Source: an uncultured Halobacteriales archaeon (GTDB lineage: Archaea; Halobacteriota; Halobacteria; Halobacteriales; Hikarchaeaceae). Taken from it: DNA of 28,495 bases. Of this stretch, positions 11,032-28,194 are shown piece by piece. The stretch covers positions 1 to 28,495 of the forward strand of contig CAYSJP010000003.1 of assembly GCA_964431395.1 (NCBI GenBank). Direction: 5' to 3'. How positions within the stretch are numbered: position 1 is the first letter of the stretch; each line of letters begins with the position of its first letter. The position numbers and the translations under genes are program-made. A model generated the notes under the pieces. The model was not told where the DNA came from and did no database searches. It saw nothing but the letters and a program-made list of their open reading frames with translations.

Positions 11032-11370
11032 GATCGGGTGTTCGCGGCGCTCCCTGATAAGGACGGCTGGAGCGGGTCACGGGTGACTGGCCCCCTCTCC
11101 CGGCGGTGCGCTCCGGGCGCAGGTCCGCTCTCCTGGCGTGCTCCGGGTCGACAGTGTTCCGCTACCCGAACAAGAGCGTGGGGTCGGTTCTTCGAAGGGC
11201 GCGACTGTACACCTGCGTCAGGCGGTCACGAGCCACGAAACCGGCCGTGTGTCCCCGGATGGGGACGACGAGGTCACTCTGCTTTGTCGTGCGGGCTAGT
11301 TCCAATAATCCGAGAACGTGACGCCGATTTATCCGTCCTCCGGGACGAGTCGTAAATGGAGGGTAGCACG

Positions 11371-16172: not shown

Positions 16173-16754
16173 TCAGTCGAGCGCCCCGACGTTCTCCTCG
16201 CTCTCGAAGCAGGCGGGGTCGGGTTCGATGCTCGCGTACTCCACCGCGCGCTCCCCGAGCACCGCGACGCGCTCCGCGATCGCCGGATCGACGACCTCCC
16301 CGTCCTCGACCTTCGAGGAGGCGTTCGGCACTGCCGCCTGGTACGGCAGGACCCAGGCGTCGAGCGCGCGACACACCGCTCGCAGGTGATCGAGCGCGGT
16401 GATGGGAAAGCTCCCGCCGGAGACGGCGAGCAGCCCCACCGTCTTGTCCTCGAACTCGTCGAACCCGCAGTAATCCAGTGCCGTCTTCAGCGGCGAGGAG
16501 TACGAGCCGTGGTACATCGGCGTTCCCAGAAGGATCGCGTCGGCTTCCCGGACCCGTGCTTTGAGGTCGGCGGCGTCACCGACGTCCTCCTGATCGGCGT
16601 CGTAGACGGGGAGGTCAAGGTTCCGGAGGTCGATCAACTCGGTCCGTGCGCCCCGTTCCGTGGCGGCGTCGAGCGTACACGTCAATGCGACTCTGGTGTT
16701 GCTGGTCTCACGTAGGCTCCCGCACACCCCGACGACGCGCGGCGTACTGGTCAT
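16173..16754 (-). CDS. NADPH-dependent FMN reductase (flavodoxin-like)
   Basis: GSLRETSNT, GTPMYHGSYSSPLKTALD and KTVGLLAVSGG motifs. Confidence 0.92.
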   Translation of the reverse strand: MTSTPRVVGVCGSLRETSNTRVALTCTLDAATERGARTELIDLRNLDLPVYDADQEDVGDAADLKARVREADAILLGTPMYHGSYSSPLKTALDYCGFDEFEDKTVGLLAVSGGSFPITALDHLRAVCRALDAWVLPYQAAVPNASSKVEDGEVVDPAIAERVAVLGERAVEYASIEPDPACFESEENVGALD

Positions 16755-16877: not shown

Positions 16878-17201
16878 ATGACATTCCACGACGCACTCGG
16901 ACCGCTGGAGGTGACGGTTCTGGTCGTCGCGATTATCGGCGCAGTGCCGATCGCGTTTCACTACAGGAAACGATCGAAGTATTTCGTCGCCGCCTACGCG
17001 CTGATCTTCGTGGGTGCCATGAGCACGAACGTCGAGAATCTGATCTTGGGCGATACGTTCAATCTATTAGAACACAGCGTCGGGTTGATGGGCGCGAGCA
17101 TCGCGTTCGCGGCCGCCGCCTATCTCCGCCGACAGAACGTCCTCTTGGCCGACAACGACGACAGCGATCCGATGACCGACGACGAGCCCGGGGGTGCGTA
17201 G
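16878..17201 (+). CDS. Small 3-TM membrane protein, probably co-transcribed with the transducer
   Basis: Three hydrophobic segments; ATATATAT TATA at -31..-24; stop lies 1 nt before the transducer ATG. Confidence 0.8.
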
Positions 17202-26425: not shown

Positions 26426-27529
26426 TCAGAAATCCGAGGGGGGGTCGGCCCCGGCGTCCCGACCGTCCGTGCTCGCCTCGATCCCGCTCCCCTCGACCGG
26501 CTCGTGGACGGCCCGATAGCCCCCCGCGACGCCGTCGACGTCTTTCACCACGTGAAACCGGATGCCTTTCTCCTGTTTCGTGGTCACGGGGAACGCGTAG
26601 TTGTCGGCCTCGTACGCGAAGTCGTCGCCGGATTCGCGCGTCTCTTCGACGAACGCCCGGTGGTCTTCCAGGCGCGTCCGGATCACGGTCTCGGAGAGGT
26701 CCGGCGCTTCCGACACCCGGTCGTCGAAGACGCGCGTGAACTCCTCGCGGAGTTCGTAGCCGACGGAGTTCCGCCCGGCGACCAGCGCAGCCAGCGAGGT
26801 CGTCCCCGTGCCCCAGAAGGGATCGAGGACGGTGTCGCCGTAGACGCTGTACATGTTGATCAGGCGGTAGGGTATCTCGAAGGGGTACGCCGCCGAGCGG
26901 TCCCGCAGGTCCCCGTCGTCGAGTGACTGCAGGTCGCCCGTGATCCCCGTCCACACGTCGGAGAACCACCGGTTGCGCTCCTCCCAGAAGTAGGCCGCGC
27001 CGTACCTGCGCTCGGCCCCGGGTTCGAAGCTCCGTGACCGCGTCCCGTTCCGGAACACCAGAACGTACTCGTGTTCCAGCGTGACGTAGGCGTTCGGCGG
27101 GAGCATCCCGGAACCCATGAACTTCGCCGCCGAATTGACCGGCTTCCGCCAGAGTATCTCCGGGAGGGGCTCGAACCCCCGCTTCGCGAGGGCGTCGACG
27201 ACCCTGGAGTGGTTCTGGTAGACGCGGAAGCTCCCGTCGACCGTCCGGGTCGCGTCCCCGACGTTGATGCACGCCATCCCGCCGTCGACGAGGACGCGCT
27301 TCACCTCCGACCACACCCCGTTCAGCTCCGCGTGCATCAGTTCGAACGCCTCTCGGCCGTCCCCGGCGTCCAGCGCGTCACGTATCGAGGGGTTGAGATC
27401 GGCGAAGGTGTCGTCCCACATCTCGATCATCGGGTACGGGGGCGACGTCACGACCAGCTCGACGGAGTCGTCCTCGACCTCCTCGAGTTGCCGGGCGTCC
27501 CCGACCACGACGCGGTGTTGCGTTTCCAT
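26426..27529 (-). CDS. zim: Orphan beta-class (N4-C/N6-A) DNA methyltransferase, probably the haloarchaeal CTAG methylase Zim
   Basis: Catalytic TSPPY near the N-terminus and SAM-binding DPFWGTGT later (beta order); no adjacent endonuclease; CTAG is scarce in the window; start re-called at ATG 27529. Confidence 0.75.
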   Translation of the reverse strand: METQHRVVVGDARQLEEVEDDSVELVVTSPPYPMIEMWDDTFADLNPSIRDALDAGDGREAFELMHAELNGVWSEVKRVLVDGGMACINVGDATRTVDGSFRVYQNHSRVVDALAKRGFEPLPEILWRKPVNSAAKFMGSGMLPPNAYVTLEHEYVLVFRNGTRSRSFEPGAERRYGAAYFWEERNRWFSDVWTGITGDLQSLDDGDLRDRSAAYPFEIPYRLINMYSVYGDTVLDPFWGTGTTSLAALVAGRNSVGYELREEFTRVFDDRVSEAPDLSETVIRTRLEDHRAFVEETRESGDDFAYEADNYAFPVTTKQEKGIRFHVVKDVDGVAGGYRAVHEPVEGSGIEASTDGRDAGADPPSDF

Positions 27530-27552
27530 TACTGGGTACACTCGGATTCCGC

Positions 27553-27567
27553 TTACTAGTGATTTCG
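27553..27567 (-). promoter_or_regulatory. BRE/TATA of the methyltransferase, containing a CTAG site
   Basis: Minus strand reads CGAAA (-38..-34) TCA CTAGTAAG (-30..-23) relative to ATG 27529, matching leaderless haloarchaeal promoter spacing. Confidence 0.65.
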
Positions 27568-27762
27568 CATGGGGACGCTCGGGGAAATAACACCATTTAT
27601 TTTGTATATAGTCCCGGGCGAACTGCGAGGCTGAGGTCGGGAGTCCAACAGGCCACCAACCCAGCCACGACCGCCCGACGCGTCGTCTCTCTGGTCAGTT
27701 ACTGATGGTACACGCTCCAGTCGCGTAACAGCTACGGAGGGGCGGTTCGGGTCGTCGACAGT

Positions 27763-28194
27763 CTACTGGCGCTCCCACAGCGACTCGATCCGTTCCTCGA
27801 TGCGGTCGATGGCGAGGCGGATCACGTCACGGTGGTCGTTCGGCCACCGAGCGTCCTTCGCGTCCGTGCGGCTGGCGGCCGGCGGCGGATGGAAGTGATC
27901 CCGCGAATTGTGTCTGTTCGGATGGCGATCCAATCGGCACTTCCACGCGCTGTCCTGCCGATCTTCTTGATGGTGGATGTTGAAGTCGTCGTTGCGGTAC
28001 CAGCGGATCTCGAAGCGAGCAGACGTCTCGTCCGGATAGTACTCGTGAGACAGTTCGACCCGGAGGTGCAGTTTCTCCTCCTCGACAATCTCCGCCGACT
28101 CGAAGGTTCGACTGGTGGCAAATCGGGACTGTATCCGCTCCAGTACTGACCGGTCTATCGGCGCGGGACTCGCGCCATCGTCTGCCGGCACCAT
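27763..28194 (-). CDS. Hypothetical protein with R.DRHPN.H..RDHFHPPP motif (putative toxin of a TA-like pair)
   Basis: 143 aa; ATG 2 nt after the upstream stop with GAGG; His-rich motif reminiscent of DUF6516/TumE-like proteins. Confidence 0.6.
   Translation of the reverse strand: MVPADDGASPAPIDRSVLERIQSRFATSRTFESAEIVEEEKLHLRVELSHEYYPDETSARFEIRWYRNDDFNIHHQEDRQDSAWKCRLDRHPNRHNSRDHFHPPPAASRTDAKDARWPNDHRDVIRLAIDRIEERIESLWERQ

Follow-up and report, generated by a model that had tools for sequence, protein, structure and literature searches.

The CTAG site in the TATA element of a haloarchaeal zim-type methylase gene is probably a neutral promoter variant

Background

Halobacteria almost universally carry an orphan methylase that acts on CTAG, for which replication, repair, gene regulation and defence are candidate roles (PMC5867850, PMC6471742, PMC11001535). 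The Haloferax volcanii enzyme, Zim (HVO_0794), is an orphan methyltransferase of the M.HvoDSI type that forms N4-methylcytosine (m4C) in CTAG (Ouellette et al. 2018, PMC5867850), and two homologous methylases with CTAG specificity, M.MthZI and M.MjaI, come from restriction-modification (R-M) systems (PMC5867850). We examined a zim-type gene and its promoter in a window of 28,495 nucleotides, the whole stretch of DNA that was analysed, from an uncultured Halobacteriales archaeon. The window is contig C3 (CAYSJP010000003.1) of a metagenome-assembled genome (MAG; GCA_964431395.1) that consists of 383 contigs, totals 2.45 Mb and is 70% complete. A sequence-only reading of the window had noticed a CTAG in the TATA position of this gene's own promoter and had proposed that its methylation closes a feedback loop. 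We find the gene to be a zim orthologue with the site placed as described, and we consider it likely that the CTAG represents neutral variation in the TATA element, with no selection for a feedback switch.

Control of methylase expression through methylation of a promoter site was reportedly described for CfrBI by Beletskaya and colleagues in 2000. In this R-M system the shared promoter contains one CfrBI site, whose methylation reduces expression of the methylase (Gibhardt et al., bioRxiv 10.64898/2025.12.04.692298). The zim gene of the window resembles it in having the enzyme's own predicted recognition site within the methylase's core promoter, as placed by the probable transcription start; M.CfrBI also makes m4C. 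CfrBI, however, is bacterial and sigma-70 dependent, has a divergent pair of R and M promoters and was demonstrated experimentally, whereas the window gene has an archaeal TBP/TFB promoter, encodes an apparently solitary enzyme, is known from sequence alone and has a site that is not conserved.

Two further bacterial enzymes are relevant. LomA of Leptospira interrogans, whose closest characterised homologue is MthZIM, is an orphan CTAG m4C methylase, and m4C at the CTAG of the sigX promoter is inhibitory (PMC7708080). It shares with the window gene the motif, the modification (predicted in the window), a homologous enzyme and a promoter CTAG, but the promoter is bacterial and belongs to another gene, not to the methylase itself. 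CcrM of Caulobacter crescentus, likewise an orphan methylase, has its recognition site GANTC in the promoter of its own gene and shares the idea of replication-coupled hemimethylation; the effect of this site on ccrM is minor. CcrM differs in making N6-methyladenine and in being a bacterial enzyme within the CtrA cell-cycle circuit. Among haloarchaea, Haloferax lucertense has an excess of CTAG in the 75 bp preceding its genes; a regulatory role for the motif was suggested, but a correlation between its methylation and expression was not found (PMC11001535). The literature consulted here contains no mention of a CTAG in a zim promoter.

Results and discussion

Identity of the gene and position of the site

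The gene lies on the minus strand (26426-27529) and encodes a 367-residue beta-class N4-cytosine/N6-adenine DNA methyltransferase, P0001. PF01555 (N6_N4_Mtase) matches residues 23-267 (E 2.6e-35), and the motif TSPPY (residues 28-32) stands N-terminal to DPFWGTGTT (236-244; FWGTG at 238-242). An N-terminal (S/D)PPY with a C-terminal AdoMet-binding FxGxG is the motif order of the beta class. When P0001 was searched one-way against the H. volcanii genome, a single match was obtained at E <= 1e-20, with 57% identity over residues 1-359 (E 3.5e-124), at 713430-714497 of the 2,847,757-bp replicon. We identify this match as HVO_0794 because the reverse complement of the 22 nt upstream of it matches the gene-specific part of the HVO_0794 deletion primer (PMC5867850) and because the supplement of a differential RNA sequencing (dRNA-seq) study gives the same sequence for HVO_0794 (PMC4983044). 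The likeness to HVO_0794 extends to Pfam family, motif order, length class and chromosomal location, and no cognate endonuclease was found for the window gene in the MAG (70% complete), so the methylase is apparently solitary there. The gene thus very probably encodes a Zim-family methylase with predicted specificity for CTAG. The sequence-only reading had called it a probable CTAG methylase, and the identity to HVO_0794, the PF01555 match and the MjaI-family neighbours of its relatives (below) bear this out.

Translation starts at the ATG at 27529 (27527-27529, minus strand), which is also the probable start of leaderless transcription; orthologues align from residue 1 and begin M-E-T-x-H. 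A GTG at 27541, which heads the longest open reading frame (ORF), is ruled out as the start by the orthologue starts and by a boundary of DNA homology at 27529.

Upstream of this ATG the minus strand reads CGAAA (27567-27563), TCA, CTAG (27559-27556), TAAG, 22 nt and ATG (27529-27527), which is exactly the layout given in the sequence-only reading. With the A of the ATG as reference, the CTAG runs from its C at -30 to its G at -27. The site (27556-27559), a palindrome and hence present on both strands, is embedded in ACTAGT. The stretch 27441-27800 is covered by contigs of four metagenome runs, all belonging to one study and probably to the source sample, and the site is identical in all of them.

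Conservation in orthologous promoters

Loci of zim were taken from GTDB species representatives (the H. volcanii locus through the Haloferacaceae genomes), and their upstream regions were anchored at the start codon that aligns with residue 1. Two scans detected several hundred orthologues (about 580 and 520 relatives). In the resulting 244 distinct promoters we scored the zone from -33 to -24. CTAG was present in the zone of 20 promoters (8.2%), starting at -30 in one, -29 in eight, -28 in three, -26 in seven and -24 in one; only five more CTAG occurred anywhere from -100 to -4. The carriers form eight or nine groups with different flanks: this MAG, a second member of its family (L093), three Haloarcula, Halobellus marinus with H. 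ordinarius, four Haloferacaceae clades, and one locus (L041) with its CTAG at the edge of the zone. Most groups have close relatives with one-base variants. In Halobellus, CTAT alternates with CTAG, and relatives of the other carrier lineages have CTCG, CTAA or CTACGG.

H. volcanii and its genus have a GGTTTTG TATA element where the window has CACTAGTAA, the three Halobacterium loci have CCTACG or ACTACG, and in the metagenomic relatives, at 92% and 90% identity on the protein level, the upstream region is unrelated and contains CTTTATG or CCTTATA; none has CTAG there. Promoters homologous to that of the window read CTAT (L082), CTAC (L348), CTAA (L352) or GTAG (L347 and L350) at -30. With all four CTAN words and GTAG found at one and the same position, the site does not behave as one conserved in orthologous promoters or maintained by selection. 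The expectation of a CTAG kept at about -28 in orthologues therefore failed, with 20 of 244 promoters carrying it and H. volcanii, the Halobacterium loci and the closest relatives lacking it. Non-conservation was the outcome that the sequence-only reading had itself set against its methylation feedback loop, and the loop is not supported.

The CTA core and the origin of the site

Control promoters were drawn from three sources: this MAG (CTAG in the zone of 5/1753, zim itself included), twenty 20-kb stretches, nineteen from CTAG-carrier genomes and one from H. volcanii (2/306), and the neighbours of zim in 4-kb loci (1/248). Pooled and without the window's zim, they amount to 7/2306 (0.3%). 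What distinguishes zim promoters from these controls is a CTA core, found in the zone of 45.5% of them against 6.8% of the 2306 controls; CTAAG reaches 19% against 0.35%. The zim promoters were also grouped by their first 90 coding nt at a threshold of 85% identity, which gave 129 clusters. Among the 53 clusters with CTAN in the zone, the base after CTA was A in 22, C in 15, T in 13 and G in 12, which is nearly uniform. CTAA, CTAC and CTAT are enriched in zim promoters, and TTAG, ATAG and GTAG are not. This absence of the mirror words rules out that the CTA core is a decayed ancestral palindromic CTAG. Nor is CTAG a generally favoured TATA-zone word in this genome, since its density in the zone is 0.7 of that in the rest of the upstream region; the corresponding figures for TATA, TTAA, TTAT and TTTA, made of T and A only, are 5 to 11. 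The gene finder used for the controls hit the aligned zim start in 87 of 139 loci, so that many control promoters may be out of register, but this leaves the result intact because CTAG has no peak at all in the control zone (0.7 of flanks).

These observations are best accommodated if zim inherited, across Halobacteria, an unusual CTA-cored TATA element, most often CTAAG, in which the base following CTA is unconstrained. In the window's lineage that base would happen to be G, which creates CTAG. The gene would be expressed as a leaderless mRNA from a proximal promoter made up of the BRE-like CGAAA at -38 to -34 and a weak TATA element at about -32 to -25, and the CTAG would presumably be methylated by Zim on both strands like any other CTAG, probably with no regulatory effect. 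The TATA-binding protein (TBP) contacts DNA through the minor groove, and N4-methylation adds its group to the major groove; hence no direct steric route from the mark to TBP binding is evident. An indirect effect through the deformability or bending of the DNA, or occlusion of the TATA element by the methylase, is conceivable.

Several results weigh against neutrality. CTAG is about 25 times more frequent in the zim zone than in controls (20/244 versus 7/2306; odds ratio 29, p = 1e-15), and the excess persists at the level of clusters (12/129 versus 7/2306; Fisher p ~1e-11). Relative to expectation from local CTA, TAG and TA counts, CTAG stands at 1.33 in zim promoters and at 0.40 in controls, a control-zone value that resembles the 0.39-0.49 elsewhere upstream. 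It has, moreover, arisen or persisted in eight or nine lineages with different flanks. Enrichment, non-avoidance and recurrence can all be read as the outcome of a CTA core with a free fourth base, but weak positive selection would account for them too. The CTA core leaves unexplained why CTAG is not avoided at this one spot, which we regard as a weak signal because the sample is small and the lineages are related. Whether a single CTAG here exceeds chance depends on the reference, 0.3% for control promoters or 8% for those of the zim type.

The non-avoidance would be accounted for by an epigenetic feedback confined to certain lineages, in which m4C on both strands of the CTAG alters binding of TBP and TFB, so that zim transcription follows the methylation of its own promoter. 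Transcription might then go up for a short time after replication, while the site is hemimethylated. The position inside the TATA zone, the roughly 25-fold enrichment, the recurrence in eight or nine lineages and the lack of the avoidance seen elsewhere speak for such a loop. Bacterial precedents exist in the sigX CTAG of Leptospira, the CfrBI site and the GANTC of ccrM, and the over-representation of CTAG at most 75 bp upstream of H. lucertense genes points the same way. We nevertheless consider this feedback unlikely. The site is lacking in 92% of the orthologue promoters, those of H. volcanii, the three Halobacterium loci and the closest relatives among them, and the CTA core with its free fourth base accounts for most of the enrichment. 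The grooves contacted by TBP and by the methyl group leave only an indirect effect through DNA bending, and CTAG methylation in H. lucertense was uncorrelated with expression. A feedback loop, judged from these comparisons, cannot be a general property of zim and could at most be a lineage-specific add-on. Part of the same claim, and in our view just as doubtful, is that several lineages (this MAG, Haloarcula, Halobellus marinus, H. ordinarius and at least four further Haloferacaceae clades) acquired CTAG in the zim TATA element and kept it, which would place an archaeal TBP/TFB core promoter under feedback that depends on methylation or occupancy. In the promoter set, the TATA zone of zim is the one place without CTAG avoidance.

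Promoter architecture and transcription start

A codon-log-odds gene finder built on the MAG predicted 1897 non-overlapping genes, 1753 of which have 80 nt upstream. Around their predicted starts, A+T rises from a baseline of ~0.32 to 0.53-0.59 at -29 to -26, with 0.43-0.46 at -34/-33 and 0.43-0.48 at -11/-10; the T/A-rich core spans -30 to -25, and A is raised at -34/-33. This profile is the TATA, B recognition element (BRE) and -10/-11 signature of leaderless haloarchaeal genes. The TATA zone of the zim promoter (27553-27561, minus strand; about -32 to -24) includes the A+T peak, and the BRE-like CGAAA (27563-27567, minus strand; -38 to -34) lies where zim promoters are A-rich (-36 to -33) and MAG promoters have raised A. 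The placement of the CTAG in the TATA position by the sequence-only reading was thus upheld, with leaderless-type spacing, by the zone that 1753 promoters of the same genome define. In addition, ATGCGAAG is common to the window and to loci L347, L348 and L352, and nearly so to L082 and L350. In these five homologous promoters an N-T-A-N tetramer begins exactly at -30, and the 26 nt from the tetramer to the ATG are not conserved. On this comparative evidence, zim is probably transcribed leaderless from the proximal promoter.

A second candidate lies farther upstream, in an A+T-rich block (27583-27612, minus strand) with a TATATA at 27605-27610, which could be an alternative promoter or the terminator region of the upstream gene. 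Were it the true promoter, the leader would measure about 50 nt and the CTAG would lie in transcribed DNA, not in a TATA box. The block itself and the H. volcanii dRNA-seq data, which call no primary transcription start site (TSS) at the zim ATG and only an internal one at +16, are in keeping with this. We judge it quite improbable, because ATGCGAAG and the N-T-A-N tetramer keep the -30 spacing while the intervening sequence diverges and because the TATATA block has no counterpart in the upstream regions of relatives that we compared; the promoters of the MAG are also overwhelmingly leaderless-spaced. The matter concerns the TSS only and is compatible with the CTAG being a neutral variant.

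The dRNA-seq data for HVO_0794 list an internal TSS at +16 and an antisense TSS only (PMC4983044), and for this reason they neither confirm nor refute leaderless transcription of zim. The internal TSS is at chromosome position 714482, 15 nt inside the ORF, and has an AAATA element of its own at -30 to -26. No primary TSS was called at the ATG despite a good GCGAAGGGTTTTG promoter at leaderless distance.

The least probable explanation, which we think very unlikely, is that Zim occupies its cognate site, or in most lineages a near-cognate CTA-N core, within its own TATA element in competition with TBP; the gene would then be repressed by bound enzyme, without a role for the methyl mark. The 11-fold enrichment of the CTA core across several families does want explaining, and two papers cite autogenous promoter-binding repression for M.EcoRII, M.MspI, M.SsoII and M.LlaDII (PMC3874152, PMC6100179), but descent of an orthologous promoter from a single ancestor would be enough to preserve its TATA variant, binding of Zim to CTAA, CTAC and CTAT is hypothetical, the NTAG variants, equally near-cognate for an enzyme that reads a palindrome, are not enriched, and a Pfam scan found no extra DNA-binding domain in P0001.

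Between the TATA zone and the start codon the window has a 9-bp palindrome, CGGA-A-TCCG (27543-27551, minus strand; -22 to -14). Small GC-rich palindromes occupy the same spot in the zim promoters of relatives. Those of Natrialbaceae (L022-L044 and L129-L188) have at -24 to -10 a conserved block with a different 9-bp palindrome, GGCG-A-CGCC, in the same place; the block, which reads GCGACGCCGAC in 15 distinct promoters, lies between a CTAAG TATA element and the ATG in many genera and may be an operator.

CTAG in the window and the genome

The window contains seven CTAG, a count that agrees with the sequence-only reading. In 100 dinucleotide-preserving shuffles the number was 32.9 +/- 5.6, and all 100 had at least seven, so that CTAG is depleted ~4.7-fold. 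The whole MAG has 467 CTAG in 2.45 Mb, an observed/expected ratio of 0.30 under a second-order Markov model; this depletion is compatible with CTAG methylation but not specific for it. Density is 0.13 per kb in predicted coding DNA versus 0.38 per kb in non-coding DNA. In line with this threefold difference, five of the seven sites in the window fall outside predicted genes. Besides the zim promoter site, these are at 87 (13 nt before the ATG at 100), 11296 (60 nt before a gene at 11356), 16163 (10 nt past a gene end at 16173) and 16862 (16 nt before the ATG at 16878).

Upstream neighbourhood and related genomes

Homology at the DNA level (92%) to the closest relatives, L342 and L345, begins exactly at 27529 and runs downstream, through a DUF7521/HTH_20 pair, to ~26026. 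All DNA upstream of 27529/27530 is non-syntenic with these two loci, which have a different promoter; more distant relatives have the promoter type of the window. The non-syntenic DNA includes a 143-residue ORF (27763-28194, minus strand) without a Pfam or NCBIfam match. We rejected the idea that this ORF is a degenerate MjaI-type endonuclease, as it has no family match and no similarity to the RE_MjaI-like ORF of L352.

In L352 a PF09568 (RE_MjaI) gene (ORF L352:2-340) lies directly upstream of a methylase 73% identical to that of the window. In a tblastn search with this ORF, about a dozen other distinct loci proved to have a similar ORF upstream of their zim orthologue, and in some haloarchaea the 'orphan' CTAG methylase thus belongs to a full R-M pair. 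Some family members resemble M.MthZI and M.MjaI in adjoining such endonuclease ORFs; the window differs, for its upstream ORF is unrelated to RE_MjaI, no RE_MjaI match was found in this MAG (70% complete), and its methylase is apparently solitary. The loci with MjaI-like ORFs are L352, L002, L005/L135, L006/L183, L010/L223, L012, L046/L232, L052, L053, L218, L225 and L237. The ORFs are co-directional with zim, and the named records are Natronomonas, Haloquadratum and Halolamina MAGs, Halorubrum species and unclassified MAGs. No zim promoter of an MjaI-bearing locus has CTAG in its TATA zone.

A sister genome of the same genus (G001:C5:5547-6304) has three partial zim matches only, which cover residues 151-349 with no N-terminal part, and one has an internal TAA; this suggests that zim is broken or fragmented in this nearest-relative genome. 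Seven other genomes of the window's family (G011 and G013-G018; family f1, genus g2) measure 0.8-1.2 Mb at 58-75% completeness, unusually small for Halobacteria, and each bears a zim orthologue of ~50% identity.

Conclusions

The zim gene of the window adds one orthologue to a known family, and its promoter is an ordinary one of the leaderless type. The comparison also indicates that zim is not always solitary, about a dozen loci having an MjaI-like endonuclease gene directly upstream. If the proposed loop were true after all, a methylase would be sensing the mark that it places on its own TATA box. This would be the first case of epigenetic feedback at an archaeal core promoter, and m4C would be shown to be able to modulate TBP/TFB promoters. 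Methylation- or occupancy-dependent feedback of this kind would be a type of control not yet described in Archaea.

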